This document shows positions 38,075-64,000 of a stretch of 64,000 nucleotides of DNA, in pieces (position 1 is the stretch's first letter; each line of letters begins with the position of its first letter). Source of the DNA: an uncultured Acetatifactor sp. (GTDB taxonomy: Bacteria > Bacillota > Clostridia > Lachnospirales > Lachnospiraceae); assembly GCA_910585615.1 (NCBI GenBank), contig CAJUFO010000003.1, forward strand, positions 18,380 to 82,379. Reading direction: 5' to 3'. The translations under genes and the position numbers were made by a program. The notes beneath the pieces were generated by a model. The model had not been told where the DNA came from and made no database searches. It worked only from the letters and a program-made list of their open reading frames with translations.

Positions 38075-38557
38075 TTATGCCAGTTTTTGAAGTCTTTCGC
38101 TATGTTCCATGATAATCGCCTTCATGATTTCGTTGTCAGCCTGTAGGGCCTCGTACCCTTCCGTTGAATCTTTATACCTCTCATAGGTTGAGAGATAGCA
38201 GGATTCAATCGTGTTCAGGCGCAGCATTATCACATTTTCCTGGAACAATTTTATCTTGTGTATTTCGGCTTCCAAGCTTGCTTTTACGGCTTGAAGTTCA
38301 GCCCAAAGAGCCTGCATTTCAGCTTGCAGCTCAGCCCTGAGAGCCTGCATTTCAGCCAACAGCTCGGCTTTAAGGGCCTGCATTTCAGCCAGCAGCTCGG
38401 CTTTAAGGGCCTGCATTTCAGCCAGCAGCTCTGTCTTAACGGACTGTACATCGCTTTTCAAGGATTGTATTTCATTTTTTATCGGTTGTATCTCTGCTTT
38501 CAGCTTCACATCCAATAACTGTGAAATTGCCAGCAAATCGTCCTGTGTCAACGCCAT
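38075..38557 (-). CDS. Coiled-coil hypothetical protein with 11-aa repeats
   Basis: GGAGG RBS; MALTQDDLLAISQLLD...(AELLAEMQALK)n...RLNTIESCYLSTY. Confidence 0.75.
   Translation of the reverse strand: MALTQDDLLAISQLLDVKLKAEIQPIKNEIQSLKSDVQSVKTELLAEMQALKAELLAEMQALKAELLAEMQALRAELQAEMQALWAELQAVKASLEAEIHKIKLFQENVIMLRLNTIESCYLSTYERYKDSTEGYEALQADNEIMKAIIMEHSERLQKLA
38290..38440 (-). repeat. 33-bp in-frame tandem repeat (four or more copies)
   Basis: GCCTGCATTTCAGC recurs at 38310, 38343, 38376 and 38409. Confidence 0.9.
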
Positions 38558-44401: not shown

Positions 44402-45292
44402 ATGGAGATTATTCTGGCGGTTGTCTGCGTGCTGTGTCTCTGTCTGGGGTTCGCATGTATCCGTTACAGGGCTGAGCTGAAATCCCTCTACCGGCAGCTG
44501 GAGGAAGTGGCGGCGGGGAGCCATATAGAGCTGACACTGAACAGCCGCTGCAAGCCCCTGCTGGGCCTCTGCCGGATGCTGAACCATGTCCTGCAGGCCA
44601 GGGACAGGGACTATCTTCAGTACGACCAGGCCGAGAAGCGGCTCAAACAGGACATCACCAGCCTGGCCCACGATATCCGGACGCCCCTCACTGGGGCGTT
44701 CGGGTACGTCCAACTGGCCCAGGAGTGCGCAGACACCGAAAAGCGGCAGCATTACCTGGATGCCGTGGAGAGGCGGCTGCGGGAGCTGGAGGACATGCTG
44801 GAGGAATTGTTCCTGTATACAAAGGTCACTGGCGAGGATTTCCGCCTGTCCCCGGAGAGCCTCCAGGTGCTGCCCCTCCTGGGGGAATGCCTGCTTGGCC
44901 TGTATGCCAGGTTCCAGGAAGCGGGCACGGCCCCCGCAGTGAGCTTCGAGACGGAAGACTTCAGGGTCATGGCAGACCAGGAGGCCCTGCGGCGGGTGTT
45001 CCTGAATCTGATTACAAACGCACTGGTGCACGGCACGGGCGATATTTCCATTCTCCAGACAGGGAACCGGATAGCCTTCGAAAATCCCATACCGGAGGGG
45101 AACCCGCCAAATCCGGAACAGCTCTTCGACAGATTCTATAAAAGCGACCCCGCCCGACGGAAGGGCTCCTCCGGCCTGGGGCTGTTCATTGTCCGGGAGC
45201 TGATGCGGAAGATGGGCGGAGAGACCGGGGCGCAGCTGGAGGAAGGAAAGCTGCGAATCACGTTGTATTTCCCTGAAGACCTATCCTTGTAA
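44402..45292 (+). CDS. Intramembrane-sensing histidine kinase
   Basis: Short N-terminal TM, AHDIRTPLT, NLITNAL, FDRFYK and SGLGL. Confidence 0.92.
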   Translation: MEIILAVVCVLCLCLGFACIRYRAELKSLYRQLEEVAAGSHIELTLNSRCKPLLGLCRMLNHVLQARDRDYLQYDQAEKRLKQDITSLAHDIRTPLTGAFGYVQLAQECADTEKRQHYLDAVERRLRELEDMLEELFLYTKVTGEDFRLSPESLQVLPLLGECLLGLYARFQEAGTAPAVSFETEDFRVMADQEALRRVFLNLITNALVHGTGDISILQTGNRIAFENPIPEGNPPNPEQLFDRFYKSDPARRKGSSGLGLFIVRELMRKMGGETGAQLEEGKLRITLYFPEDLSL

Positions 45293-45387
45293 TCAAATGG
45301 GCCACGCAAAAAAGCATACTATAATGCAATGCCTGCCATGGACAGGAACGCTGTTAAAGGGACGCTTTCGCAATTGAAGACATCCCT

Positions 45388-45777
45388 CTACAACCAGCTC
45401 CTCTCCACATTCTCCTTCAACGAACAGAACATCCCGCAGAATAGCTCCCGCGTCTGCCGTATGATATCCAAAGCAATCGCCTTATTATAGGAATGGGCCA
45501 CATTGTTCCGCGCCTGCAGCGCTGCCAGCCATACATCCTCGTCTATTATCATGGATGCCTGAAATGCGGTTTTGATAATCAGCTTTGGCGACCCGGTGGA
45601 GGCCCCCTCATAGCCATGCAGCTCCAATATCTCCTTCATCATTTTCCATGCCTGCTCAAAACATATCTCATATAATCCGACCAATCCAGTCATTGTCACA
45701 TTGTCATAGGGCTCATGGTAATGCTCGATATCCATAAGGTTATTCAGAGCCGCACAAAAGTTCTCATATTTTCTCAT
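45388..45777 (-). CDS. HI0074-family (HEPN-like) nucleotidyltransferase substrate-binding protein
   Basis: YEICFEQAWKMMK, SPKLIIKTAF and ARNNVAHSY (R-X4-H); AT-rich. Confidence 0.88.
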   Translation of the reverse strand: MRKYENFCAALNNLMDIEHYHEPYDNVTMTGLVGLYEICFEQAWKMMKEILELHGYEGASTGSPKLIIKTAFQASMIIDEDVWLAALQARNNVAHSYNKAIALDIIRQTRELFCGMFCSLKENVERSWL

Positions 45778-46057
45778 ATAAAACCTTCCCTTCCTTTTCA
45801 ATCGAGGACATGAGCTCATCATGCACAGGTCGATTGAGATTTACGATATCGAATTTCAGCAATGTCGAAGTTTCTTCTTCCACATCCAGCGCAAACCTTG
45901 CTATATCCCCGCCCATGACTGCCAAATCGATGTCGCTAGTCCGTTTGTAGTCGCCCCGCGCTCTGGAGCCGAACAGGATTATTCTCTGTATATGATATTT
46001 ATGTGCCAAATCAAGGATTTCTGCTATGACCGAGGATCTGATTCCGGTTCCGTCCAC
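45764..46057 (-). CDS. Minimal nucleotidyltransferase (MNT)
   Basis: ILFGSRARGDYKRTSDIDLAV...KFDIV. GTG start follows AGAAAGGG; overlaps the partner gene. Confidence 0.88.
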   Translation of the reverse strand: MDGTGIRSSVIAEILDLAHKYHIQRIILFGSRARGDYKRTSDIDLAVMGGDIARFALDVEEETSTLLKFDIVNLNRPVHDELMSSIEKEGKVLYEKI

Positions 46058-46255
46058 AATGATTCCCTTTCTGCTATTCTCGTTTTGCAATAAGCATAGG
46101 CTGCTATGGTTACTTTAACATGGAAGCGGTTTTTTCACAACCATAAATTGCAGGAATCGCCTGATTTATAGCTGCACAAAGACGCGCCCCGCCCCACCCG
46201 CCGAAAGCCCACAAAATTTTTGTTGAAATTTTATCCTAAAAACTGTAAAAAACAG

Positions 46256-50389: not shown

Positions 50390-51763
50390 ATGAAAATGCG
50401 GATGAAGAAAATAATAGGGGGCTTTTTCTGCGCCTGCTGCCTGCTGCTCTCAGACATGGGCCTTCGGGCGGACGCGGCGGAGGGCGCCCCCGGGGAGCTG
50501 TACGCCACCGCCGCGGTCCTGATGGACGCCGATTCCGGGCGGGTGCTCTACGGCAAGAACGAGGAGGCCGTCATGGCCATGGCCAGCACGACGAAGATCA
50601 TGACCTGCATCCTGGTCCTGGAGAACGCCTCCCCCGATGACACCCTCACCGTGTCCGCCTATGCCGCCAGCATGCCCAAGGTCAAGTTGTACATACAAAA
50701 GGGGGAGCAGTATACCGTCCACGACCTGCTGCACTCCCTGATGCTGGAGTCCCATAACGACACGGCGGTGGCCCTGGCCGAATACATAGGCAAGCAGCAT
50801 CTGCCGGAGCAGCTTCGGGAAAAGGACACCGCCGAATATACGGCGGAGGAGAGCAAGGCGGCCGTGGCGGCCTTCGCTGCCCTGATGAACAGGAAGGCGG
50901 CAGAGCTGGGCTGTGAGGACACCTGGTTCATCACGCCCAACGGCCTGGACGCCACCGAGACGCTTAGACTTGCGGACGGCAGCACGGTGCAGAAGGAGCA
51001 CTGCACCACGGCCAGGGAGCTGGCCAGGATTCTGGCATACTGCATCAGGCAGTCGCCCAAGAGGCAGGAGTTCCTGGACATCACAAGGGCCCCGAGCTAC
51101 GGCTTTTCCGCCAATGGGCGCAGCTTCTCCTGCACCAACCACAATGCCTTCCTCACCATGATGGACGGGGCCCTCACCGGGAAGACCGGCTTCACCAACA
51201 AGGCCGGATACTGCTACGTGGGCGCGCTGGAGCGGGACGGCAGGACCTTCGTGGTGGCGCTACTGGCCTGCGGCTGGCCGAACAACAAGGGATATAAATG
51301 GACGGATACTCGCAAGCTCATGCAGTACGGCATCGACAATTATTTTTACAGGAGCTTTTCCGACCAGGGAGTGGCCTTTGACGAAAGCAGGCTGAAGCCC
51401 ATTCCCGTGCAGAACGGTCGGACGGATCTCCTGAACGCCATAGCCTACACGGACGTAGTGATTTCCGGAAGGACAGAGGGCCAGAATGGCGGCCCCGGCC
51501 AGGGCGAAGCGGCTGCAGAAGAGGGCGGCGGGGGCCTGGACGGGCTGCTCCTGCGCCCGAACGAGAAGATTCAGGTAAGGTACAGCATGAAGGACTCCCT
51601 GACAGCCCCTGTGGAGGCGGGGAGCGTAGTGGGGAAGGTGGAATATATGGTGGACGGCATCCTGTATAAGCAGGAGAGCATCGTCACCGAGGACGCGGTG
51701 GAGGCCATCGACCTTAGATGGTGCGCCGAGCAGATCTGGCGGCGTTTTCTGTGCACAGGATAA
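50390..51763 (+). CDS. D-alanyl-D-alanine carboxypeptidase (S11, DacB-like)
   Basis: MASTTKIMT, SHND, TPNGLD and GKTGFT. Confidence 0.92.
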   Translation: MKMRMKKIIGGFFCACCLLLSDMGLRADAAEGAPGELYATAAVLMDADSGRVLYGKNEEAVMAMASTTKIMTCILVLENASPDDTLTVSAYAASMPKVKLYIQKGEQYTVHDLLHSLMLESHNDTAVALAEYIGKQHLPEQLREKDTAEYTAEESKAAVAAFAALMNRKAAELGCEDTWFITPNGLDATETLRLADGSTVQKEHCTTARELARILAYCIRQSPKRQEFLDITRAPSYGFSANGRSFSCTNHNAFLTMMDGALTGKTGFTNKAGYCYVGALERDGRTFVVALLACGWPNNKGYKWTDTRKLMQYGIDNYFYRSFSDQGVAFDESRLKPIPVQNGRTDLLNAIAYTDVVISGRTEGQNGGPGQGEAAAEEGGGGLDGLLLRPNEKIQVRYSMKDSLTAPVEAGSVVGKVEYMVDGILYKQESIVTEDAVEAIDLRWCAEQIWRRFLCTG

Positions 51764-51786
51764 TCTCCGTAATGCTCCGTGAGTTA

Positions 51787-51817
51787 TCTCCTGGCCCGCT
51801 CCGTCGCGGGCAGGAGA
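51787..51817. repeat. REP-like palindrome
   Basis: TCTCCTG(G)CCCGC-TCCGTC-GCGGGCAGGAGA. Confidence 0.55.
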
Positions 51818-51824
51818 GTCTGCG

Positions 51825-51950
51825 ATGCTGAAGGCCCATGCTAATCCGAACAGCACTTCCGACCTAGTGGTGCGGGTGACAGGATATTCCGCTTTCTTCT
51901 CTTCTCTGTTGCCGAATACAGGTAACAGACCATGGACAGGAGCCGGCCCT
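51825..51950 (+). pseudogene. Glycyl-radical enzyme C-terminal remnant
   Basis: LKAHANP...DLVVRVTGYSAFFSSL (RVxGY motif, Gly codon at 51882-51884), followed by a frameshift and an in-frame stop in the expected PEYRQQ.VDR tail. Confidence 0.7.
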
Positions 51951-52237
51951 GACAAGTCCCAGGGCCTCGAACTTACGTCCGTCTGGCTTGACGACGATTC
52001 TATCGTCTATATGGATGCCAGGGTCATGCGAGGCCTGCCTGCGGACAAAGGACGATAGGATTTCAGGGCCTTTTGGGGAAAGCCTTTTTTCAGGTGTCTG
52101 GTGAGGCGCTCTACGTAATTGACTTTTTGGGGCTTTTCATGGAGCTGGTCCAGAAAGGATTCCTTATATTTTTTTGGTTTTTGGTTAATCAGTACCTCTA
52201 ATCCGTATTCATGTGGATAAAGCTGCGGAAACTCAAG

Positions 52238-52277
52238 GAAATTCATGCTTGCCTGTCACCTCATTATGATATATAAT
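52238..52277 (+). repeat. Left 40-bp direct repeat (copy of the zapA promoter)
   Basis: GAAATTCATGCTTGCCTGTCACCTCATTATGATATATAAT; 38/40 identical to 61446-61485; contains TTGCCT-17 nt-TATAAT. Confidence 0.9.
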
Positions 52278-52456
52278 CAAAAAAATCGAGGCTGTAAAGA
52301 TTGTGGCGTTAGCTTCTGAAGGTGGGACGTTCTATAATTACCAGAAAGGACTCGCGGAGGCACTGACTATAGCTATGTGGGAATCCGGGAAGCACAAGGC
52401 CGGTGTGGGGGTGCGGACAGGAATAGGTGGGGACAATTATGGCATGTGCAGGTAAA

Positions 52457-54094
52457 ATGAAGGAACTGGCAAATTCCGTTGTCACGAAAATCACCCTGCT
52501 CATCATAGGGATTGTGTTCCCCATGAATATTTTGCTGATAGTGGTTACGAAAAATTCCATAGACACCATTACAAGCCAGACCATTACTGCAAATGAGAAT
52601 ATGCTGAACAACTACCAGATGCAGATTGATAAGGACATGGAGGCCATAGACAGGTTCCTCTACAGCATGACCAAAGACGGAACCCATTTCCTGCGCCTGA
52701 CGCAGGCCAAGGGGGAGGATGAGAAGAAGCTGACCAGGTACAACCTAAACAATGAATTCGGGAATCTGCTCTATCTGTATGACAGGGCAGGAGGGGTATT
52801 CTGTGTGAAAGAGGAGGAGATTCTGCTCCATGTGAGAAGCTCTCTTTTGATGGAGGAAGAAGTACTGCAATCTTATCTTGCTGCGGCAGAGCATCTGGAA
52901 ACGGCACGGCAGTGGACCATTCTGCAGATCGGGGACAGGCAGTATCTGGTTCATGTCTTCAAACAGAACAATGCCTATGTAGGCGCTCTGATATTTGTGG
53001 AGTATGTGGTGGGGGAACTGGAGGCCTTGATAGAGTACAGGGATAAGCAGGTATATCTGATGCCAGAGCAGGCAGCCTGCCAGAAGGATACAGAACTTGG
53101 CATTTATTCCAGCTCCAGACTGAACCAGACGGGAATCTGTTTTTCCGTGATTCTAAAGCGGAGTGAAATACTGGAAAATCTGCCTATGTTGCAAAAGCTG
53201 AATTATTACCTCGCCATTGTATTGCTTTTTTCCGTGCCCCTGCTCTTGGTCATGCTGTACAAGATTTTGATTCAGCCGCTTCAGAGAATTAACCGTGCCT
53301 TGGACAGCATCCAGGATGAATCTATGGACTACCGGATTCGGGCCTGTAAGACTTCGGCGGAATTCGACCATATTAACCAGGCATTCAACCTGATGATGAA
53401 CAGAATCGTCTACCTAAAGATACAGAACTATGAGCAGATGATGGAGAAGCACCAGGTGGAGACCACAAATATGCTGTTGCAGGTGAGGCCTCATTTCTTG
53501 CTGAATGCCTTCCATCTAATCTATAACTTGGCGCAGATGGAAGATTACGTGGGAGTACAGAAGATGGCTGCATGTCTGACTACGTATTACCGGGAAGGGG
53601 TGCGGGAGAAGGTGGACTTCAGGACGGTGGGGGCCGAGATGGCCTTTGTGGAAAATTACCTGGAGATTGCGCGGATGCGGTATCCGGACTGTTTCGAAGT
53701 GGAGGAACAGATAGAGGACAGCGTCAGGGAAAAAAATATTCCTGTCATGCTGATTTATACCTTTGTGGAGAATGCCATATCCCACCTGGTGAGTTTCGGC
53801 AGCTTCCTTACCATCCGTATACAAGTTATCTGGCGGAACGGAAAAATATGGATTGAGGTGTGTGATGACGGGGAGGGAATCCCGGAGGACATCCTGGAGC
53901 AGATCAACCGTGGAGATGTCATTGTAAAGAACGGGGAACAACATATCGGATATTGGAATTGTAGGAAACGCCTTGCCATGCTCTATGGCAAGGAGGCCGT
54001 GCTGGCGGTGGAATCTGTCCGGTCGCAGGGGACCAGGGTCCGGATTGAGCTTCCGAATCAGACGGAGTATGCAGATACAGGAGGACATGTATGA
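52457..54094 (+). CDS. YesM-like sensor histidine kinase (HAMP, His_kinase)
   Basis: LQVRPHFLLNAF, ENAISH, DDGEGIP and HIGYWN. Alternative GTG start at 52427. Confidence 0.9.
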   Translation: MKELANSVVTKITLLIIGIVFPMNILLIVVTKNSIDTITSQTITANENMLNNYQMQIDKDMEAIDRFLYSMTKDGTHFLRLTQAKGEDEKKLTRYNLNNEFGNLLYLYDRAGGVFCVKEEEILLHVRSSLLMEEEVLQSYLAAAEHLETARQWTILQIGDRQYLVHVFKQNNAYVGALIFVEYVVGELEALIEYRDKQVYLMPEQAACQKDTELGIYSSSRLNQTGICFSVILKRSEILENLPMLQKLNYYLAIVLLFSVPLLLVMLYKILIQPLQRINRALDSIQDESMDYRIRACKTSAEFDHINQAFNLMMNRIVYLKIQNYEQMMEKHQVETTNMLLQVRPHFLLNAFHLIYNLAQMEDYVGVQKMAACLTTYYREGVREKVDFRTVGAEMAFVENYLEIARMRYPDCFEVEEQIEDSVREKNIPVMLIYTFVENAISHLVSFGSFLTIRIQVIWRNGKIWIEVCDDGEGIPEDILEQINRGDVIVKNGEQHIGYWNCRKRLAMLYGKEAVLAVESVRSQGTRVRIELPNQTEYADTGGHV

Positions 54095-54900
54095 AGCTGC
54101 TGCTGGTAGATGATGAACCCATATCCATGAACCAGATAATCCAGGGGGTGGACTGGGCTTCCTGCAATGTCAATGCGGTCTACATTGCGTACAATGCCAG
54201 GGAGGCCAGGGAAATCTGCGCCAGAGAGCAGATACACATCCTGTTGTGTGACATTGAGATGCCAGGGGAAAACGGGATAGAGCTGGTGCGCCATGTCAGG
54301 GAACAGTACCCAGAGATTGTCTGTCTCTTTCTCACCTGCCATGCGGATTTTGCATATGCCAGGGAGGCCGTCCGCTTAGGCTGCAGCGAGTATTTTGTAA
54401 AGCCGGCTCCCTATGAGGAGATTGCCCGGACCCTTCTTCGGATATCCAGGGAAATCCGGGATGCGGAGGAATACAGACAGCTGGTCATCTATGGCAGACA
54501 ATGGGTGGCCAGCAAAAAAGAGGAAATTGTTGCTGGGACTACCAGAAAGATGGAACCGGCTGAAATCGTGGAGAAGGTAGAGCGCATGGTGTTGGAGCAT
54601 CTGTCTGGAGAAATCTATGTGGAGAAAATCGCAGGAGAGATTTTCCTGTCTCCAGACCATCTGAACCGCATCTTCAAAAAGGAGAAGGGCATCTCCATTA
54701 ATAAATTCATCATCGGGGAGCGGATGAAGATGGCGGCCCGTATGCTCCGGGAGACGGATGTGACGGCCTACATGATTGCAGAGGCTGTCGGTTATGCAAA
54801 TTACCCGAATTTTGTGAATATGTTTAAGAAATTTTACGGGATTTCCCCTATGGGATATAAAGAACAGATGGAAAAAGGAAAAAATGTCGGAAATGAATAA
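54091..54900 (+). CDS. YesN-like response regulator with an AraC HTH
   Basis: LLVDDE, CDIEMPG, FLTCHADF.YA..A and the AraC HTH LSPDHLNRIFKKE...FKKFYGISP. Confidence 0.93.
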   Translation: MKLLLVDDEPISMNQIIQGVDWASCNVNAVYIAYNAREAREICAREQIHILLCDIEMPGENGIELVRHVREQYPEIVCLFLTCHADFAYAREAVRLGCSEYFVKPAPYEEIARTLLRISREIRDAEEYRQLVIYGRQWVASKKEEIVAGTTRKMEPAEIVEKVERMVLEHLSGEIYVEKIAGEIFLSPDHLNRIFKKEKGISINKFIIGERMKMAARMLRETDVTAYMIAEAVGYANYPNFVNMFKKFYGISPMGYKEQMEKGKNVGNE

Positions 54901-55046
54901 GCAGATAACGGATAGGGATATGGTAAAATTGCCATGTCCCTTTTATGATGGAGGTGTAACAGTAAAACTCCATATGCACGGGTATACTAGATGACGGCAA
55001 ATCTTCATGCATCTTGTATATGGATTGGAAAAACGGAGGATGAACA

Positions 55047-56630
55047 ATGAGAAAACGGTGGTTTGCAATGTGTCTGGCCGGGATGATGACCGTGATGACG
55101 GCGCTCACTGGCTGTGGGACGGATGGGGGAAAGGAGGAATCTGATTCCGCGCAGCAAAGCAGTGCGGAAACCGGACAGAGCAGCGAAGAAAGCCAGGAAG
55201 ACGTATCGGATACCGATGCCGGAGAGGAACCTTTTGAGATGGTAATGTCATATATCCATCCGGGTACCATCCCAAAAGATCTGCAGATGGTGGAAGATGC
55301 TTTGAACGAGATTACCATACCTGAGATCAATGTAAAGGTCACATTATATCCCATCTCTATCGGGGAACACCAGTCTAAGTACAACATGATGATCTCTTCC
55401 GGGGAAAAACTGGATTTGATTTGCGTCCTGTTTGACGGAGGCCCGGGCATCTATGTGAACAAGGGACAACTTCTGGAACTGGATGAATTGTTTGAAAAGT
55501 ACGGTGCGGATGTGGAGGCTGCCGAGGGCGTTGCCATGGCGGGAGGATATTTCAATGGCAAACTGTATGCCATTCCTGATGAGGAATTTATGGGAAGACG
55601 CTATGGATTTGTAGGAAGGCAGGATATCCTGGACAAGTATGAATTTGACGAATATGAGGATGCCACATATGAAGATCTGGATGCTTTCTTTGCCAGAGTG
55701 AAGGCGGGGGAAGGGGAGGATTTCTATATCTTCAACAATGTGGGCGGTGTCAGTACCATTGGCAATTTCATGCTGACAGATAAGCTTGGGGCCTCCACTG
55801 CCTCGGGAGTATTGATGAATGGCGGCAGGGATGACACCCAGATTACAAACCTGTATGCCACAGAGGAATATAAGGAACATCTGAAATGGATGCGGAAATG
55901 GTACGAGGCAGGATATTTCCCAAAGGACTGCATCACCATGACAGACAGCCAGGTGGATCTGATGCGGTCGGGGCATTACCTAGGATGCTTTAACTCTGTG
56001 AGCCCCATTATGGATTCCCTCTGTACCCAGGACTATGGGTACTTAATGAAGTCAATCTATATCACGGATATCTATGCGGCGACAGAGCTTTACCAGATTT
56101 CCCAGTGGGGTCTGCCAATTACCTGCGAGAATCCAGAGAAGACCATGGAATTTGTGAATCTCATGTTCAAGGATGTGAATGTGGCAAATCTTCTGCGGTA
56201 TGGCATTGAGGATGTCCACTGGGTGAAGACGGACAAGGAAGGAATCATCACTTTCCCGGAAGGGCTGGATGCCAATACCTGCGGGTATGTGAATACTCTG
56301 GGACTGTATGGAGACAAGAGCCGGATTTATCAGTGGGAACCTGCTGAGCCAGAAATTTTCGAAGACCTGAGGGAATATAATGCCCAGATTCTGAACAGTG
56401 CAGATAAGCAGTCCAAAGCTCTGGGATATTGTTTCAATACAGAGCCGGTACAGGCAGAATATGCGGCAGTTTCCACAGTAGTGGGCCAGTACGTGCCTGC
56501 CTTAGAAACAGGGAGCGTGAATCCGGATGTAGTGCTTCCGGAATTCCTGGAGGCTCTGGAGGCAGCGGGAATCCAGGAATGTATCGCGGAGAATCAGAAG
56601 CAGCTGAATCAGTGGCTGGAGGCAAGATAA
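55047..56630 (+). CDS. Sugar ABC substrate-binding lipoprotein (DUF3502-type)
   Basis: Lipobox ALTGC, ISSGEKLDL, NLLRYGIEDVHW and the C-terminal L..AG...IAE.QKQLN.W tail. Confidence 0.9.
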   Translation: MRKRWFAMCLAGMMTVMTALTGCGTDGGKEESDSAQQSSAETGQSSEESQEDVSDTDAGEEPFEMVMSYIHPGTIPKDLQMVEDALNEITIPEINVKVTLYPISIGEHQSKYNMMISSGEKLDLICVLFDGGPGIYVNKGQLLELDELFEKYGADVEAAEGVAMAGGYFNGKLYAIPDEEFMGRRYGFVGRQDILDKYEFDEYEDATYEDLDAFFARVKAGEGEDFYIFNNVGGVSTIGNFMLTDKLGASTASGVLMNGGRDDTQITNLYATEEYKEHLKWMRKWYEAGYFPKDCITMTDSQVDLMRSGHYLGCFNSVSPIMDSLCTQDYGYLMKSIYITDIYAATELYQISQWGLPITCENPEKTMEFVNLMFKDVNVANLLRYGIEDVHWVKTDKEGIITFPEGLDANTCGYVNTLGLYGDKSRIYQWEPAEPEIFEDLREYNAQILNSADKQSKALGYCFNTEPVQAEYAAVSTVVGQYVPALETGSVNPDVVLPEFLEALEAAGIQECIAENQKQLNQWLEAR

Positions 56631-56730
56631 GGAATCATCCAGAGAGTAGCGTCTGACGGTGCCTAAAAAAGAAGTTCAGGGGTGTTGCAGGCTGTACCTG
56701 TAATCCCCCTGGCCCGGGAGGGAGGAATCA

Positions 56731-57636
56731 TTGAAGAGAATCAGGAAATACATACCTTTGTACATTATGGCAATTCCAGGGCTGGCCTATCTGGTAGTCA
56801 ACAATTATCTGCCCATGTTCGGCCTGGTGATTGCCTTTAAAAAGCTGGATTTCAGGCTGGGAATCTGGGACAGCCCCTGGGCCGGACTCCAGAATTTCAG
56901 CTTTCTGTTTCGGACAAAAGATGCCTTTATCATCACACGGAACACCATCCTTTATAATGCTGCGTTTATAGTGGTGGGTACAGTGCTGGCAATAGCCATT
57001 GCCATATTGCTCAATGAAATCAGAAGCAGACTGGCTTCCAGGCTCTATCAAAGCATTCTTCTGATACCATATCTGATGAGCTGGGTTGTGGTAGGATACC
57101 TGGCGTTTGCGTTCCTGTCCTCTGATACAGGTTATCTGAACAAGGCCCTTTTAAGGCCCCTAGGCCTTCAGGAAGTCTCATGGTATATGGAGAAGAAATA
57201 CTGGCCATTTATCCTCATCCTTGTGAATCAGTGGAAAAATATCGGTTTTACTATGGTAGTATACCTGGCCAGTATTGTAGGAATCAATAAGGAATATTTT
57301 GAGGCAGCCCGGATTGATGGGGCGGGCAAGTGGAAGCAGGTGCGGTATATTACACTGCCGCTTCTGAAACCCACAGTAATCACTCTGACCCTGCTCAATA
57401 TCGGTCGTATTTTCTATTCGGATTTCGGGCTGTTCTATCAGGTTCCCCGTAATTCGGGGATGCTCTATGATGTCACCAGGACCATAGACGTGTATGTCTA
57501 CAATGCCCTGATGAAGAATACGGATTATGCCATGGCCTCCGCCGCCAGCTTCTATCAGTCGGTGGTGGGATTTGTACTGATTATAGGGGCGAATCTGGTA
57601 ATCCGGAAAGTAAACAGAGAGAACGCTCTGTTCTAG
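56731..57636 (+). CDS. Sugar ABC permease (LplB-like)
   Basis: YLPMFGLVIAFK, EAARIDGA and DFGLFYQVP; TTG start after GGAGG. Confidence 0.92.
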   Translation: MKRIRKYIPLYIMAIPGLAYLVVNNYLPMFGLVIAFKKLDFRLGIWDSPWAGLQNFSFLFRTKDAFIITRNTILYNAAFIVVGTVLAIAIAILLNEIRSRLASRLYQSILLIPYLMSWVVVGYLAFAFLSSDTGYLNKALLRPLGLQEVSWYMEKKYWPFILILVNQWKNIGFTMVVYLASIVGINKEYFEAARIDGAGKWKQVRYITLPLLKPTVITLTLLNIGRIFYSDFGLFYQVPRNSGMLYDVTRTIDVYVYNALMKNTDYAMASAASFYQSVVGFVLIIGANLVIRKVNRENALF

Positions 57637-57655
57637 GAAGGGAGGTATCGCGGGA

Positions 57656-58555
57656 ATGTATACACGACAAGACAAGATAGCAGAAAGAATAGCCCATGTG
57701 GTCCTGGCGCTGGCATCCGCCTTGGCATTGCTGCCTTTTCTGCTGCTGGTGATGGCTTCTTTTACGGACAATAGCGTGGCAGTGGTGGAGGGCTACCGCT
57801 TTTTCCCGAAAAAATACAGCCTGGAGGCCTACGCCTACATTCTCCAGGAGTGGACAACCATAGGACGTGCCTATGGGGTAACAATCTTCGTGACGGTAGC
57901 GGGAACTGCCGTGAGCCTGTGTATCTCCTCCATGCTGGCCTATGTGCTGTCCCGGCGGGATCTGCCCGGTGGGAGGATATTGAATTTCCTAGTGGTATTT
58001 ACCATGCTGTTTAACGGTGGAATCGTATCCAGCTATTTCCTGTATACCAATGTGTTCCATATCAAGAATACCATTTTTGCACTGCTGGTACCAGGGCTGC
58101 TGATGGGAGCTTTTAACCTGGTCCTCATGAGGAATTACTTTACCACCAATATCCCGGAGGCCTTGACGGAAGCGGCCAGGATAGACGGGGCCTCAGAGTG
58201 GACTGCATTTGCCAGGGTAGTCATGCCGCTTTCCATGCCCATCCTAGCCACCATAGGGCTGATGACAGCCATCGGATACTGGAATGACTGGACCAATGGG
58301 TTATATTATCTGGATGATCGGAATGGCAGCCACTTATATAGCATACAGAATGTACTGAATCGGATGAATGAGAATATCAGTTTCCTGGCCAATAATTCTT
58401 CCCAGATGGGAGGGGTGATGCAGACGGGCAACCTGCCCACCACGACCATGCGCATGGCTATCGCGGTGGTGGGAATTCTCCCTATCCTGGCGGCATATCC
58501 CTTTTTCCAGAAGTATTTTGTGAAGGGGATTATCATAGGATCTGTGAAGGGATGA
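57656..58555 (+). CDS. Sugar ABC permease (LplC-like)
   Basis: TMLFNGGIV, EAARIDGAS, YWNDW and YPFFQKYFVKGI..GSVKG. Confidence 0.92.
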   Translation: MYTRQDKIAERIAHVVLALASALALLPFLLLVMASFTDNSVAVVEGYRFFPKKYSLEAYAYILQEWTTIGRAYGVTIFVTVAGTAVSLCISSMLAYVLSRRDLPGGRILNFLVVFTMLFNGGIVSSYFLYTNVFHIKNTIFALLVPGLLMGAFNLVLMRNYFTTNIPEALTEAARIDGASEWTAFARVVMPLSMPILATIGLMTAIGYWNDWTNGLYYLDDRNGSHLYSIQNVLNRMNENISFLANNSSQMGGVMQTGNLPTTTMRMAIAVVGILPILAAYPFFQKYFVKGIIIGSVKG

Positions 58556-58603
58556 AAAAGGGCAGGTAGGGATGCCTTTTGGGGACATGTGCGGAGGTAT
58601 GAT

Positions 58604-61360
58604 ATGGAATATGGCAGTAGAAGGAACCGGCTTCTGGAGGTGCTATCGGGAAAGGCAGAGAATTATCTGTATCCGCTGTTCTGGCAGCATGGGGACCAGA
58701 AGGAGGTTCTGGAAGAATATGTGGAGAAAATCAAGGAAAGCGGTTGTGGGGCTTTCTGTGTGGAGTCCAGGCCCCATCCGGACTTCCTGGGGGAAGGCTG
58801 GTGGCGTGACCTGGGGATTCTCCTTGGGAAGGCAGAGGAGCTTGGCATGAAGGTGTGGATTCTGGATGATTCCCATTTTCCCACAGGATATGCAGGTGGC
58901 AGAGTAAAAGAAGCGCCGGAGAACCTGCGGCAGTGGTTCCTGAGACACCGGGAGATGGACATTCCCGGGCCAGTGGACGGGAAAATTGCCATAGGGCCGT
59001 TCTCGGGCGAGCGGCAGGGGATAGTAGGAGACGGCGAGCAGCTAGTATCTGCTGTATTGGTAAAGCGGTGCGGCGGGAAGGATTTCGCCTCTGATGGGAG
59101 ATTCTGGAATCTGACCGGACAGGTGAGGGACGGATGGCTTCTTTTGAAACTGCCCAAAGGACAGTACAGGCTTTATGTAATTGTCCGGTGCAGAGGGGAG
59201 GAGGGGCCTTTTGCGGACTATATAGACATGACAAATCCGGAATCAGTCAAGATACTGCTTGCGGAGACTTATGAAAAGCACTATCAGCATTTCGGCCATG
59301 AATTTGGCAGGACAATCACCGGATTTTTCTCGGATGAGCCGGGTTTCTACAATTCGGACCACTGGAGCGGGTATTCCTTCCGCTGCCAGATTGGCGCCGA
59401 TATGCGCATCCCTTGGAACCCCTATATCAGCCAGGCTTTCCAGGAGAAGCTGAAAAAAGAAAAGATACTCAAAAAGGCCCTGGTCTATCTGCCGAAAGGG
59501 GATGTCCCCGGGAGCATTGGAAGTAAAGAAGAATCCAGGATGCAGGCGCTTCTGCCCTGCCTGTGGTTTCCCTGCGGAGGGTATACCGAGGAAATCCGGG
59601 CAGCCTATATGGATGTCCTGACTACTCTTTACCAGGAAAATTTTACCGGGCAGCTGGCGGCATGGTGCAGACAGCATGGCGTGGAATATGTGGGGCATGT
59701 GATTGAGGACAATAACGCGCATTGCAGGCTGGGATCTGGACCAGGACACTATTTCCGTGCTGTGGGTGGCCAGGATATAGCAGGAATTGATGTGGTGTTA
59801 CAGCAGGTACTTCCCGGGCAGGACTACCTGCAATTCGGCATGTCTTCCAGAGGCGTACAGGATGGAGCTTTCCAGCACTACGGACTGGGAAAGCTGGGCG
59901 CTTCCCTGGCGCACCAGGCACTTCACACCAGGGGACGGGCAATGTGCGAGATTTATGGGGCCTATGGGTGGGCGGAGGGGATTGGACGGATGAAATGGCT
60001 GGCAGACCATATGCTGGTGCGGGGAATCAACCTGTTTGTACCCCATGCCTTTTCGGAGAAAGCTTTTCCGGATCCGGATTGTCCCCCTCATTTTTATGCA
60101 CATGGCCACAATCCCCAATACCCATACATAAAGGAACTGTTTCCTTATATGAACAGGATGTGCCATCTGCTAAGCGGCGGGAAGCCGATGATTCGTGTAG
60201 GCGTCCTGTACCATGGGGAGTCGGAATGGCTTGGCAGGAGCGTATATTTCCATACCATCGGGCAGGTTCTGATGCAGCATCAGATTGACTATGACGTGGT
60301 CTGGATGGATCAGCTGGAGCATGCGGTGGCTGAAAACGGGGTAATCAAATCCGGTCTGCTGGAGATTACTTGTCTGTTGATTCCCCTGGCGGACCGGTAT
60401 CCGGACAAAGTTAAAGTTTATGTGGCAGACTGTGCTCAAAAAGGCGTACAGGTGTATCAGGTGCTGGATGAACTGCCCGGGAACAGCAGGGAGGGAGAGT
60501 TGTGGGACTTCTCTGACGACAGGGAGGGGGAGCGGCTGATAAACTGTATCCAGATAGGCCTGGATCAGTTGGCGGATACCTTATACGCAAAAGCAGGGGA
60601 ACTGCACTTGGAGGCAGAAGGACAGGAGGATGCCGCAAAATGGCTCAGGTATTACCACTATATCATGGAGGACGGAAGGCATTGTTACATGCTGTTCCAG
60701 GAGTCCATGACAGAGGGCATATGCGGTTGGGCGAGACTGCCGGTGATGGAGTGCCTGAAACGCTACGACGGCATGGCAAACAGGCTGTACCAGGTCTCCT
60801 GCCATGGGGAGAGATTCTTCTTAAAGCTGTTTCCAGGGGAGGCGGCGGTATACCTGGCTGGTCGTCCGGATTCCGTTTCCGCACAGGAGGAACACGAAAG
60901 TACCTACAGGAATATGGACGCAGCCATACAGGCAGACTTGGGGACATGGCAGACCCCTGACTGTATAGTCAGGATTTCCCTGGCAGAGTACAGGAATCCA
61001 GAGACATTTTATATGGTGGAGGATGTGGAGAATGCGCTTCTCTCACAGACACACAGTATCCCTCTCGATTTCTCCGGGATGATTCGCTATGAGACAGAGT
61101 GGGATATGACAGGGGAGGAACTGGGAATCCTCCATCTGGGGCAGTGCAGGGAGGCCGCCAGGGTATGGGTCAACGGCAGGGACGTGGGAGTGCGTATGGG
61201 ATACCCCTACTATTATGAGATGGCAGATGCCTGGGTACCTGGCAGGAACCGGATTCGGGTAGAGGTGCCCACCACTCTGGCCCATGCCCTGTGTGACTGC
61301 TTTTCCAGGAATATGGTGGTAGTTTCCGAAGGGCTGGACGGTCCTATGCAATTCAAATAG
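58604..61360 (+). CDS. Glycoside hydrolase, GH106-like (putative alpha-L-rhamnosidase)
   Basis: YPLFWQHG, VESRPH, WILDDSHFPTG, GFFSDEP, AMCEIYGAYGW, DHMLVRGIN..VPHAF and a C-terminal beta-sandwich. Confidence 0.7.
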   Translation: MEYGSRRNRLLEVLSGKAENYLYPLFWQHGDQKEVLEEYVEKIKESGCGAFCVESRPHPDFLGEGWWRDLGILLGKAEELGMKVWILDDSHFPTGYAGGRVKEAPENLRQWFLRHREMDIPGPVDGKIAIGPFSGERQGIVGDGEQLVSAVLVKRCGGKDFASDGRFWNLTGQVRDGWLLLKLPKGQYRLYVIVRCRGEEGPFADYIDMTNPESVKILLAETYEKHYQHFGHEFGRTITGFFSDEPGFYNSDHWSGYSFRCQIGADMRIPWNPYISQAFQEKLKKEKILKKALVYLPKGDVPGSIGSKEESRMQALLPCLWFPCGGYTEEIRAAYMDVLTTLYQENFTGQLAAWCRQHGVEYVGHVIEDNNAHCRLGSGPGHYFRAVGGQDIAGIDVVLQQVLPGQDYLQFGMSSRGVQDGAFQHYGLGKLGASLAHQALHTRGRAMCEIYGAYGWAEGIGRMKWLADHMLVRGINLFVPHAFSEKAFPDPDCPPHFYAHGHNPQYPYIKELFPYMNRMCHLLSGGKPMIRVGVLYHGESEWLGRSVYFHTIGQVLMQHQIDYDVVWMDQLEHAVAENGVIKSGLLEITCLLIPLADRYPDKVKVYVADCAQKGVQVYQVLDELPGNSREGELWDFSDDREGERLINCIQIGLDQLADTLYAKAGELHLEAEGQEDAAKWLRYYHYIMEDGRHCYMLFQESMTEGICGWARLPVMECLKRYDGMANRLYQVSCHGERFFLKLFPGEAAVYLAGRPDSVSAQEEHESTYRNMDAAIQADLGTWQTPDCIVRISLAEYRNPETFYMVEDVENALLSQTHSIPLDFSGMIRYETEWDMTGEELGILHLGQCREAARVWVNGRDVGVRMGYPYYYEMADAWVPGRNRIRVEVPTTLAHALCDCFSRNMVVVSEGLDGPMQFK

Positions 61361-61445
61361 AACATATACCAGCCCAAGGGGAGATACAGCTATTTTCGCT
61401 ATTCTGGCTTTTCCCCTTTCCGAAAGTAAATTGGCACTGCCACCC

Positions 61446-61485
61446 GAAATTAATGCTTGCCTGTCACCCCATTATGATATATAAT
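61446..61485 (+). promoter_or_regulatory. zapA promoter / right 40-bp direct repeat
   Basis: GAAATTAATGCTTGCCTGTCACCCCATTATGATATATAAT, 46 nt upstream of the zapA ATG. Confidence 0.85.
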
Positions 61486-61531
61486 ATGGATGGACAAAAG
61501 GGAAACATATTTTCACAAAAGGGGTGGGGGC

Positions 61532-61939
61532 ATGGCTTCGTCTTCCAAGACAGATACAGAGGTAATCATCGGCGGCAAGGTATTCACTCTGAGCGGTTAC
61601 GAAAGTGAAGAGTATTTACAAAAGGTAGCGTCCTATATCAACAACAAGATAAACGAGTACAGCAAGCTGGACGGGTTCAAGAGGCAGCCTGCGGATACCC
61701 AGGGGGTGCTGCTCCAGCTGAACATCGCCGATGACTATTTCAAGGCGAAGAAGCAGATATCCGCCCTGGAGGAGGACCTGGCGGCCAAGGACAAGGAGCT
61801 GTACGACCTGCGGCATGAGCTGATATCCACCCAGATTAAGCTGGAGGGCGTGGAGGAGCAGGTAAAGGCGCTCCAGAAGGCCCAGAACGAGGGCGAGAAA
61901 GAAATCGTGCGGCTGGAAACAGAGTTAAAGAAAAAGTAA
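61532..61939 (+). CDS. zapA: Cell division protein ZapA
   Basis: VIIGGKVFTLSGYESEEYLQKVASYIN...LNIADDYFK plus a coiled-coil tail. Confidence 0.9.
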   Translation: MASSSKTDTEVIIGGKVFTLSGYESEEYLQKVASYINNKINEYSKLDGFKRQPADTQGVLLQLNIADDYFKAKKQISALEEDLAAKDKELYDLRHELISTQIKLEGVEEQVKALQKAQNEGEKEIVRLETELKKK

Positions 61940-61941
61940 TA

Positions 61942-61973
61942 GGGGGCTGTCCGAATCCCGGACAGCTTCTTTC
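61942..61973 (+). terminator. Terminator-like hairpin after zapA
   Basis: GGGCTGTCCG...CGGACAGCTT stem followed by TCTTTC. Confidence 0.5.
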
Positions 61974-62014
61974 ATTATAGGTTGCCATAGGCTGCTGATG
62001 CAGGGGAGTTTTTT

Positions 62015-64000
62015 ATGGAAAAGAATGACAGAGTCGAACTGCTTTCGCCCGCCGGGAACGCGGCCGGGTTCTACGGGGCTGTCCATGCGGGCGCGGATGC
62101 CGTCTATCTGGCTGGAAACCAGTTCGGGGCCAGGGCCTACGCCGAGAATTTTGCCACAGAGGAGCTTCTGGAGTGCATCCGCTACGGACATCTCCTCGGG
62201 CGGAAAATCTATCTCACTGTGAACACGCTGCTGAAGAATCAGGAGATGAAGCAACTCCATGATTACCTGGCCCCCTTTTACGAAGCCGGGCTGGATGCGG
62301 TGATTGTTCAGGACTTAGGGGTCTTGCGCTTTATCCGGGAACATTTCCCCGGGCTGAAGCTCCATGTGAGCACGCAGATGACCATCTGCTCCCGCTGGGG
62401 AGCCTCTCTGCTGAAAGACATGGGCGCAATCCGCATCGTCCCCGCCAGGGAGTTGGGCCTGGAGGAGCTTATAACCATGAGGAAGGATTCCGGCATCCAG
62501 GTGGAGGCATTCGTCCATGGCGCCATGTGCTACTGCTATTCGGGACAATGCCTGTTCAGCAGCATCCTGGGGGGACGCAGCGGCAACAGAGGCCGCTGCG
62601 CCCAGCCCTGCCGTCTGCCCTATACGATAAGCGATGGGACAGGCTGCAAGGAATGTTATCCGCTGAGCCTGAAGGATATGTGCACTGTCGGGCATATCCC
62701 CCGGCTGATAGAGGCGGGCATCGATTCCTTCAAGATAGAAGGACGCATGAAGCGGCCGGAGTATACCGCCGGTGTGACGTATATCTATAGACGCTGCATC
62801 GACAATTATTATGCGCTGAGGAGCAGGATGGGGCCTCGGGAGGCCGCGGAAGCCTACGGCGTCAGCGAGGAAGACAGGAGGGCGCTGGCTTCCCTTTATG
62901 TGCGGGACGGCCTTCAGGACGGCTACTATTTCAGGCGTAACGGCCGGGATATGGTCAGCATCGACAGCCCCGCCTACCGCGAGAGCGATGAGCAGGCGCT
63001 GTCCCGGATACGGGAGAGATACCTGAATGCCCATTTGAAGCTGCCTGTGACGGTCAGGGCCTTTTTCCATGTGGGCAGGCCTGCGAAGGTAATTCTGGAA
63101 ACGGAATGCCCCTCTTCCATGGGACGTCTGTCTGCCGGGGCGGAGGGCGAGCCTGTGACACAGGCCATGAAGCAGCCCATCACAGAGGAAAATGTCCGAA
63201 AGCAGCTCTGCCGGCTGGGGGACAGCGCCTTTTACGCGGCCGGGGTCGAGGTTTCCATGGATCAGGACAGCTTCTACCCGCTGAAGCAGATCAATGAGCT
63301 GCGCAGGATGGCCGTGGCGCAGCTGGAGCGGGAAATCCTCCGGGCAAGAGGTTATCGGGAGAACGGACAGGGGGAAAGGACGGAGGAGGGCATGGCGGAA
63401 AAAATTGCCATGGCGGAAAAAATTGCCACGGCGGAAGAATGCACCACGGAATCGTCTTCGGATGCCGAACCGTCGAGCAGCAAGTCCGGAGACCCCTCTC
63501 CCCACAGCTATGCTTTCTATATCCGCACTGTGGGGCAGCTGAAGGCGCTGGGAGAATGGATTGGCGCAAATCCTCTGAATCGTCCCTGGCGAATCTATGT
63601 GGACGGCGACCTGCTCGCAGAGAGATGGACCGAGACAGCGGACCTTTGCCAGGGGCTTTCCGGCAGCGGGGCGCTGTTCGCGGCGCTTCCCTATATCCTG
63701 CGGGAGACGGACGGGGGATATCTGGAGGAATTGTATGAAAAAGTGAAGGAAAGCTGTCTTTTCCAAGGCTTCCTGGTCCGCTCCATGGATGGGCTGGGCT
63801 TTCTGCGGGAGAAGAAGAGCATTCCCAGGGAGAGGCTGCGTCCCACGGAAGGAGCCGCCCTGTCTGTCAGGACGGACGCAGGTGTCTACGTGTGGAACGA
63901 TTCCGCCCTGGAGGAGCTGTCCGGCCTGGCGGAGGGCTTTTGTCTGCCTTATGAGCTGAACGCCTCCGCCCAGAGGCATCTCTGCCAGGAGCTTCGTCAA
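62015..64000 (+). CDS. U32-family protein with DUF3656 region (RlhA-like), runs off the window
   Basis: ELLSPAGN...GADAVY...FGARA, HVSTQM, CYCYSGQC..SS..GGRSGNRGRCAQPCR and KIEGRMKRPEY. Absent from the ORF track because the stop lies outside the window. Confidence 0.92.
   Translation, partial: MEKNDRVELLSPAGNAAGFYGAVHAGADAVYLAGNQFGARAYAENFATEELLECIRYGHLLGRKIYLTVNTLLKNQEMKQLHDYLAPFYEAGLDAVIVQDLGVLRFIREHFPGLKLHVSTQMTICSRWGASLLKDMGAIRIVPARELGLEELITMRKDSGIQVEAFVHGAMCYCYSGQCLFSSILGGRSGNRGRCAQPCRLPYTISDGTGCKECYPLSLKDMCTVGHIPRLIEAGIDSFKIEGRMKRPEYTAGVTYIYRRCIDNYYALRSRMGPREAAEAYGVSEEDRRALASLYVRDGLQDGYYFRRNGRDMVSIDSPAYRESDEQALSRIRERYLNAHLKLPVTVRAFFHVGRPAKVILETECPSSMGRLSAGAEGEPVTQAMKQPITEENVRKQLCRLGDSAFYAAGVEVSMDQDSFYPLKQINELRRMAVAQLEREILRARGYRENGQGERTEEGMAEKIAMAEKIATAEECTTESSSDAEPSSSKSGDPSPHSYAFYIRTVGQLKALGEWIGANPLNRPWRIYVDGDLLAERWTETADLCQGLSGSGALFAALPYILRETDGGYLEELYEKVKESCLFQGFLVRSMDGLGFLREKKSIPRERLRPTEGAALSVRTDAGVYVWNDSALEELSGLAEGFCLPYELNASAQRHLCQELRQ

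Follow-up and report, generated by a model that had tools for sequence, protein, structure and literature searches.

The dacB–zapA interval of the 64-kb stretch of a mouse-gut Lachnospiraceae genome studied here (hereafter the window, within which the repeats and recombinase genes were searched) holds a six-gene sugar cassette lying between two copies of a 40-bp sequence, which is the core promoter of zapA. The right copy, P(R), is the resident promoter of this cell-division gene, and the left copy, P(L), stands before the histidine kinase gene that leads the cassette. On balance, we favor the explanation that the cassette is the present cargo of a hotspot whose contents change by general recombination, and that P(L) is a second zapA core promoter driving the kinase gene and the regulator gene that follows it.

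The repeat and its presumed role as a promoter

The two copies agree at 38 of 40 positions, the mismatches being at repeat positions 7 (C in the left copy, A in the right) and 24 (T and C, respectively). They are the sole matches with three or fewer mismatches in the 64 kb, and no such match arose in 100 dinucleotide-preserving shuffles, which confirms the direct repeat reported in an earlier note made from this sequence. A promoter scan likewise bore out its description of each copy as containing TTGCCT-17 nt-TATAAT and ending at the −10 hexamer: both copies match the consensus at 10 of 12 positions, the repeat and the −10 element share their last base, and hexamers at 16–18 nt spacing that are conserved upstream of a gene, as expected for a σ-70-type promoter, are present. 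The placement of the right copy before zapA and of the left before the kinase gene of the cassette also proved correct, with the precision that the kinase is a sensor histidine kinase and not a sugar kinase. The zapA ATG (61532) lies 46 nt beyond the end of the right copy, and the called start of the first cassette gene (52439) lies 161 nt beyond the end of the left one.

Exact-pattern scans with the core of the 40-mer returned four loci from 185,579 species genomes and eight from the JGI metagenomes. It stood solely upstream of zapA, in one copy each, in the four GTDB species genomes and in 7/8 metagenome loci, and the flanks amounted to five contexts in all, four of them directly upstream of zapA and the fifth being the left copy. 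Since it is found only upstream of zapA, the left copy aside, we regard the 40-mer as a conserved zapA promoter block and not as a regulon motif; neither the genome nor the JGI scans placed it at many unrelated promoters, the result that the note had named as fatal to its own proposal. The homology of the relatives to the right side of the window starts exactly at 61446 in every comparison. Moreover, P(R) is identical at 40/40 positions to the copy of a distant relative that has nothing inserted at this site (L016), though the flanks are only about 79% identical, which indicates strong constraint on the right copy. At repeat position 33, both copies carry the ancestral T, and lineages B and C have a G.

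An assembly artefact is excluded, because both junctions recur in nine other assembled contigs (public metagenome-assembled genomes and metagenome assemblies, some from the same sample) and because all sampled words of the stretch are present in 14 DNA runs, mostly labelled mouse or gut metagenomes. The two changes private to P(L), A7C and C24T, fall outside the hexamers and are present in all nine of these contigs of the lineage, in which the hexamers and the 17-nt spacing of P(L) are also intact. With the shuffles, the exclusively zapA-linked contexts and these contigs and runs, the idea that the repeat reflects chance similarity, a shared regulon motif or an artefact of assembly is refuted, and we found no point in its favor.

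As for the role of the left copy, no other strong promoter-like match precedes the kinase start; a single further match (9/12 positions) overlaps the start codon itself. Upstream of it there are only scars of older genes and a fragment in the opposing orientation, preceded by a terminator-like hairpin that overlaps the end of dacB (51724–51741), and the same kinase and regulator pair at another site (L019, described below) has no promoter-like site. Low-level transcription of the cassette genes was seen in assembled contigs of a mouse-gut metatranscriptome (X14). It is for these reasons that we infer the left copy to be active. It would act as a constitutive σ-70-type promoter for the kinase and regulator genes up to the hairpin at 54914–54941, leaving the genes for the transporter and the glycosidase under the control of the regulator; the duplicated core has probably been kept because it drives this promoter-less pair. 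The zapA gene retains its untouched right copy and may also receive read-through, because no terminator-like site was found between the last cassette gene and the right repeat (scan of 61200–62100). Thus, of the proposal in the note that the cassette gains a host promoter while zapA keeps its own, the second half stands, and the first is plausible, the activity of the left copy being deduced from the evidence just given.

It is conceivable, though we consider it rather unlikely, that the left copy does not serve as a promoter and is simply a neutral scar of recombination, the pair being transcribed from elsewhere or by read-through. The distance of 161 nt to the start codon would fit such a scar, as would the L019 pair, which is presumably transcribed by read-through from lgt, and two substitutions cannot demonstrate constraint. 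However, little read-through is to be expected across the scars and the opposed fragment that precede P(L) in the window, with the hairpin at the end of dacB before them and the alternative promoter-like match placed on the kinase start codon, and neither the integrity of hexamers and spacing across the lineage nor the transcription of the cassette in vivo is what a functionless remnant would lead one to expect.

The interval in relatives and the cassette at other sites

The sequence to the left of the cassette is a patchwork of segments of 56, 128, 53, 236, 40 and 84 bp, in that order (Table 1). The first, which begins 8 bp past dacB, is a scar of an AraC-type response-regulator gene: its counterpart, L033 1981–2036, falls within a minus-strand gene with Response_reg and HTH_18 domains, and in relatives a response-regulator gene follows dacB. 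The second matches, at 78–82% identity, the final 128 bp of the gene for a PFL-like glycyl radical enzyme (GRE) in L001, L014, L015 and L017. A 77-aa open reading frame (ORF) at this place gives a weak Gly_radical match just under the Pfam cut-off, and the scar also gave weak matches to CutC/HpsG-type models. The two scars retain the ancestral order. After 53 bp of no traced origin comes F1, a truncated gene that is missing at this locus in all relatives and overlaps P(L) by 4 nt, GAAA. For the linker that follows P(L), no homologous sequence was seen in L019, the zapA leader or the relatives. We also considered whether an ancestral spacer had been kept upstream of either copy, but local alignments to the spacers of lineages B and C and of the empty sites gave p values of 0.09–0.88, the sole nominal match being the 8-nt GCGGAAAC (p 0.05), and this possibility was rejected. 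The left copy is therefore an isolated 40 bp of zapA promoter sequence set among pieces unrelated to it and does not sit in an ancestral context, and the window lineage formerly carried a GRE locus and then lost it. The cassette did not, therefore, simply integrate at the zapA promoter, as the note had supposed; the scars show the replacement of an older GRE locus instead.

The sole homologue of F1 (102 aa, 63% identity in protein, 90–92% at the nucleotide level) lies beside a Phd/YoeB toxin–antitoxin pair on a 1.4-kb metagenome contig (L018 222–1166); the F1 protein fell into only two clusters in 5.8 billion sequences, i.e., it has one other homologue and no family. The private change A7C of P(L) creates an ATG (window 52244–52246) that opens the 79-aa minus-strand ORF over F1. 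This ORF is probably an accident of the junction, since the L018 homologue starts seven codons further upstream.

Four states of the dacB–zapA interval were distinguished, and the 40-mer is duplicated in the window lineage only, the others holding a single copy. In the empty state (L016 and L030), dacB is followed by about 42 bp, one 40-mer and zapA, with flanks about 79% identical to those of the window. In the second (L015), a PFL-like GRE gene ends 28 bp before the 40-mer, and in the third, that of lineage B (L001, L014, L017, L024–L028 and L031, the records of L014 and L017 being titled uncultured Acetatifactor sp.), the GRE locus and a 735-aa gene stand upstream of it, in the order binding protein, two permeases, pyridoxal phosphate (PLP) enzyme, activase, GRE gene and 735-aa gene. 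The fourth state, scars plus cassette, is that of the window lineage, and the cassette was present in all 22 contigs read with an identical DacB. A convergent AraC-type response-regulator gene lies directly past dacB in the lineages of the third state (L032 and L033), and dacB adjoins scpA–scpB in all lineages, the left flank of the window reading scpA–scpB–dacB. The empty site with one copy that the note had advised looking for therefore exists, and its expectation that cassette-free relatives would collapse to a single copy at the junction held in all states seen; what failed was its expectation of other cargos at the same 40-mer, given that neither the GRE operon nor the 735-aa gene at dacB–zapA is flanked by a second copy. 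The dacB gene itself is a mosaic with respect to L033, being 96.7% identical and then 99.4% over the last 534 bp, with identity of 85.7% only 8 bp past the gene; the spread of mismatches to the right of P(R) against lineages B and C was uninformative on a recombination breakpoint. The interval is best read as a hotspot of gene turnover that, in Acetatifactor-like Lachnospiraceae of the mouse gut, lies between two conserved core genes.

The operon of lineage B (L001 8–7582) encodes a sugar-type binding protein, a PLP enzyme of the Cys/Met-metabolism type, a radical S-adenosylmethionine activase and a PFL-like GRE. The 2.3-kb segment that follows (L001 7583–9913) contains the 735-aa gene, which has no Pfam family, and a promoter-like site of its own, TTGACG-17-TATGAT. 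It sits precisely between the spacer downstream of the GRE gene and the zapA promoter block, 3 nt upstream of the latter, and its insertion caused no duplication or deletion relative to L015. A degenerate promoter copy bounding the 735-aa gene was sought, and the best candidate was not significant (p = 0.09); a relation between the 735-aa protein and the large protein of the cassette was likewise considered and not found.

The same six genes, led by a kinase 89% identical in protein, occur at a different site in L019, with 88–89% nucleotide identity from 52362/52383 to 61397/61412 of the window (L019 1403/1422–10444/10459). There the cassette starts 2–3 nt beyond the stop codon of lgt, and after it come a terminator, the promoter of mraZ, then mraZ–rsmH–ftsL and a penicillin-binding protein gene. 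At this lgt/mraZ site it has no flanking repeat (longest family shown 29 nt at 66–79%) and no 40-mer, and no promoter-like or terminator-like site was found between lgt and the kinase gene. It follows that the 40-mer is not part of the cassette and that the cassette changes sites without leaving repeats; the cassette also appears to have no 5′ promoter of its own. A more distant version with the same gene order and 48% kinase identity is present at a third site (L020–L023). In both known sites of the close version, the cassette adjoins a cell-division promoter downstream (zapA; mraZ of the dcw cluster) and an envelope gene upstream (dacB; lgt), which may be a coincidence; the two promoter regions (L019 10409–10735 and window 61361–61531) have no similarity to each other.

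The G+C content between the copies (52278–61445) is 50.3% versus 56–57.5% outside, and neither the six cassette genes nor the flanks of the interval contain an integrase or transposase domain by Pfam and other profile models, both as the note had remarked for the interval. Near the junctions there was no tRNA and no Rfam match (riboswitch or leader RNA), and at the cassette ends a search for terminal inverted repeats or short duplications gave only 7-nt matches, at chance level. The status of the cassette as accessory DNA is supported. The regulator and carbohydrate-transport parts of a Gram-positive polysaccharide utilization locus (PUL) are all there, with the kinase, the AraC-type regulator, the binding protein and two permeases. 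As for the polysaccharide-degrading enzyme, the 918-aa protein has no Pfam match above threshold and no PDB sequence match, and gives only sub-threshold rhamnosidase/GH106-like signals (a rhamnosidase-type jelly-roll C-terminus at E 2e-10 and 4e-7, below the cut-off, and GH106 at E 0.047). We thus describe the six genes as a putative Gram-positive PUL, its enzyme family not being established. The identical ZapA protein was found in 888 blocks of a public collection, in two different gene contexts.

Table 1. Coordinates of the features of the dacB–zapA interval in the window
Feature	Position	Strand	Remarks
dacB-like S11 D-Ala-D-Ala carboxypeptidase gene	50390..51763	+	left core flank; Pfam Peptidase_S11 (E 5e-43), PBP5_C
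56-bp scar of AraC-type response-regulator gene	51769..51824		85.7% identical to L033 1981-2036
128-bp scar, 3′ end of PFL-like GRE gene	51826..51952	+	ends at stop codon
Fragment F1, truncated gene	52006..52241	-	236 bp; 79-aa ORF 52007-52246; abuts P(L)
Left copy P(L)	52238..52277	+	GAAATTCATGCTTGCCTGTCACCTCATTATGATATATAAT; zapA core promoter, TTGCCT-17-TATAAT
84-bp linker, P(L) to shared cassette	52278..52361		no homology to L019, zapA leader or relatives
Shared six-gene cassette	52362..61412	+	delimited by L019 comparison, 88-89% nucleotide identity
YesM-like sensor histidine kinase gene	52439..54094	+	Pfam His_kinase, HATPase_c, HAMP; start per public contigs
YesN-like response-regulator gene, AraC-type helix-turn-helix	54091..54900	+	Pfam Response_reg, HTH_18
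Terminator-like hairpin after regulator pair	54914..54941	+	12-pair stem, then T run; 0.2 expected in shuffles
Extracellular solute-binding protein gene, LplA-like	55047..56630	+	SBP_bac_8 and DUF3502
ABC sugar permease 1 gene	56731..57636	+	BPD_transp_1; sub-threshold GlcT/UgpA-type permease models
ABC sugar permease 2 gene	57656..58555	+	BPD_transp_1; sub-threshold GlcU/MalG-type permease models
918-aa putative glycoside hydrolase gene, no established family	58604..61360	+	partial or sub-threshold matches only
33-bp linker, cassette end to right repeat	61413..61445		L019 homology stops near 61412
Right copy P(R)	61446..61485	+	GAAATTAATGCTTGCCTGTCACCCCATTATGATATATAAT; resident zapA promoter
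zapA	61532..61939	+	Pfam ZapA (E 9e-21)

Origin of the duplicated promoter

In the course of events that we favor, an older GRE locus would have been lost from the window lineage, leaving the two short scars, and the six-gene cassette, apparently promoter-less at its 5′ end, would have joined directly upstream of zapA, general recombination creating the second 40-bp copy on that occasion. This could have happened when DNA already bearing both the cassette and the zapA promoter integrated by a single crossover (Campbell-type) or by one-sided homology, or else through the copying of a short templated or ectopic patch from the promoter close by, at a microhomology junction. The crossover duplicates the shared segment, so that the repeat is expected to begin exactly where the homology between lineages begins; the left edge of the repeat coincides with that of the block that all lineages conserve, which fits insertion–duplication. 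The T at position 33, the unchanged right copy and the two private changes of the left copy fit either route, and the two routes are not separable on these grounds. Site-specific recombination is not indicated.

Several points weigh against this explanation. A donor lineage with the cassette and the zapA promoter but no left copy was not present in the 40-mer scans. The longest perfect runs between the copies are 16 nt, and a 40-bp segment with runs of this length is short for a RecA-dependent crossover. Both copies begin at the same nucleotide and the left one ends exactly at the −10, a tightness that general recombination predicts only when combined with selection, and a count of two substitutions does not suffice to establish that the left copy is under purifying selection. 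Furthermore, the RNA evidence on the cassette consists of assembled contigs that give neither transcript ends nor direction.

The copy may have been made within the genome, at or after the arrival of the cassette, by replicative template switching or a gene-conversion-like patch, and then have spread because it switched on a silent cassette. We give this explanation a minor but appreciable share of the probability. In its favor are a left junction made of short unrelated segments, the 4-nt microhomology at the joint of F1 and P(L), the ancestral T at position 33 in both copies where lineages B and C have G, and the fact that the L019 cassette has no promoter-like site of its own. Against it, the start of the copied tract would have had to fall on the start of the conserved block by mere chance, the rest of the 64 kb contains no short templated copies of a comparable kind, and on the present data its predictions coincide with those of the single-crossover route.

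The attachment-site model, in which a promoter serves as the target of a recombinase-less cargo, had been put forward in the note, and in the form of a cis-mobilizable-like unit integrated by a site-specific recombinase acting in trans, with the two copies as attL and attR and the unit excisable, we find it improbable. It would suit a direct repeat that flanks accessory DNA of lower G+C content, the single copy at the unoccupied sites of relatives (L016, L030, L015 and the lineage B loci) and the fact that in three independent junctions (that of P(L) with F1, that of P(R) with the cassette tail, and the 735-aa gene insertion in lineage B) the left edge of the promoter block is no more than 3 nt away. 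On the other hand, neither the interval nor the sequence next to it contains a gene for a recombinase, the cassette at lgt/mraZ has neither repeats nor the 40-mer, the GRE operon and the 735-aa gene have no second copy (best candidate p = 0.09), the 84-bp and 33-bp linkers part the repeats from the cassette as L019 defines it, and the two large collections contained no third 40-mer context. The note had also predicted that recombination between the repeats would excise the cassette cleanly. No joint of 52277 to 61485 was found in the contigs of the four runs examined, assembled contigs being a form of data that drops rare variants, and no contig, the nine of the lineage included, joined the DNA to the left of P(L) with that to the right of P(R), the combination expected of an emptied site (…ACTCAAG-40-mer-ATGGATGG); no other recombinant combination of flanks appeared in them. 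The recombinase, the repeats elsewhere or around other cargo and the excision products that this model predicts were thus not found, and it is left unsupported. A transposon with target-site duplication was also rejected: there is no transposase, the inverted match is only 7 nt and at chance level, and the duplication is 40 bp, when those of transposons are typically 2–15 bp. Selection for intact promoters can explain why the junctions never enter the promoter block but not why they leave no spare bases. On account of these tight junctions, we keep a very small probability that the upstream edge of the block is a true site-specific insertion point, at which a host or trans-acting mechanism could place cargo and could duplicate the promoter, with the result that the cargo and its essential neighbor would both remain expressed.

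Further features and comparison with known systems

Other accessory or repetitive features were noted in the window. A low-G+C island (45–50%) of about 950 bp (45280–46225) lies between a HisKA kinase gene and rpsU and contains a minus-strand pair with NTP_transf_2/Polbeta and NTase_sub_bind domains, similar to MNT/HEPN toxin–antitoxin systems; it is missing in the sister lineage L032, where about 37 bp take its place, and no flanking repeats were found. At 38262–38459 there are five to six tandem 33-nt units, 64–82% identical, of the type AGCTCAGCC..GCCTGCATTTCAGCC, probably an 11-residue repeat on one strand. The segments 32695–33235 and 35867–36407 are paralogous, 3172 bp apart and 71–80% identical, and look like two neighboring genes for ABC transporters of a single family.

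Provided that the left copy is active, the window offers a clear natural case of an acquired promoter-less operon expressed through a copy of the promoter of a core neighbor, with zapA, the cell-division neighbor, keeping its own promoter. It also documents, in uncultured mouse-gut Lachnospiraceae, a recombinase-free hotspot of gene turnover in which the scars left by the former occupant are datable. The process belongs to a known class, and the present evidence does not call for a new mobility mechanism; the junctional duplicate of the neighbor's promoter is a tidy detail and possibly an adaptive one.

Some elements flanked by att sites, including recombinase-less cis-mobilizable ones, are known, and some restore the 5′ end or the promoter of their target, as SXT does at prfC. 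As in these elements, repeats bound accessory DNA in the window, only one copy is present at the empty site and the upstream region of the target stays functional; unlike them, the dacB–zapA cassette has no recombinase, no excision was seen, no second cargo has the repeats, and the same cassette occurs elsewhere without them. For the gene content, the YesMN and LplABC-type systems of B. subtilis serve as a comparison. The Gram-positive PULs (gpPULs) of Lachnospiraceae combine a regulator and carbohydrate transport with one or more polysaccharide-degrading enzymes (Sheridan et al. 2016, PMC5320581). The cassette resembles both in having a histidine kinase and an AraC-type regulator, an ABC importer whose binding protein is of the DUF3502 type and a large putative glycosidase, all in one orientation, and differs from gpPULs in that its enzyme family is below threshold and no ATPase gene is included.

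As regards the locus, hotspots have been described that lie between core genes, contain no mobile-element genes and exchange their contents through recombination in the core genes on either side (Oliveira, Touchon and Rocha 2017, PMC5635113). The interval agrees with these in that dacB and zapA bracket four contents in related lineages without integrase or transposase, and the mosaic identity of dacB to L033 is consistent with recombination in the flank; it departs from them in that its cargo is bounded by a 40-bp duplicate of the neighbor's promoter, which a double crossover in the flanks does not give. Single-crossover integration that duplicates a homologous segment around an insert has been seen experimentally, with duplications of 109–950 bp (PMC3240628). 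Although the duplication in the window is only 40 bp, coincides exactly with a promoter core and has no known donor molecule, it shares with these cases of Campbell-type insertion–duplication and homology-facilitated illegitimate recombination the placement of an insert between direct duplicates of a shared segment, without a dedicated recombinase.

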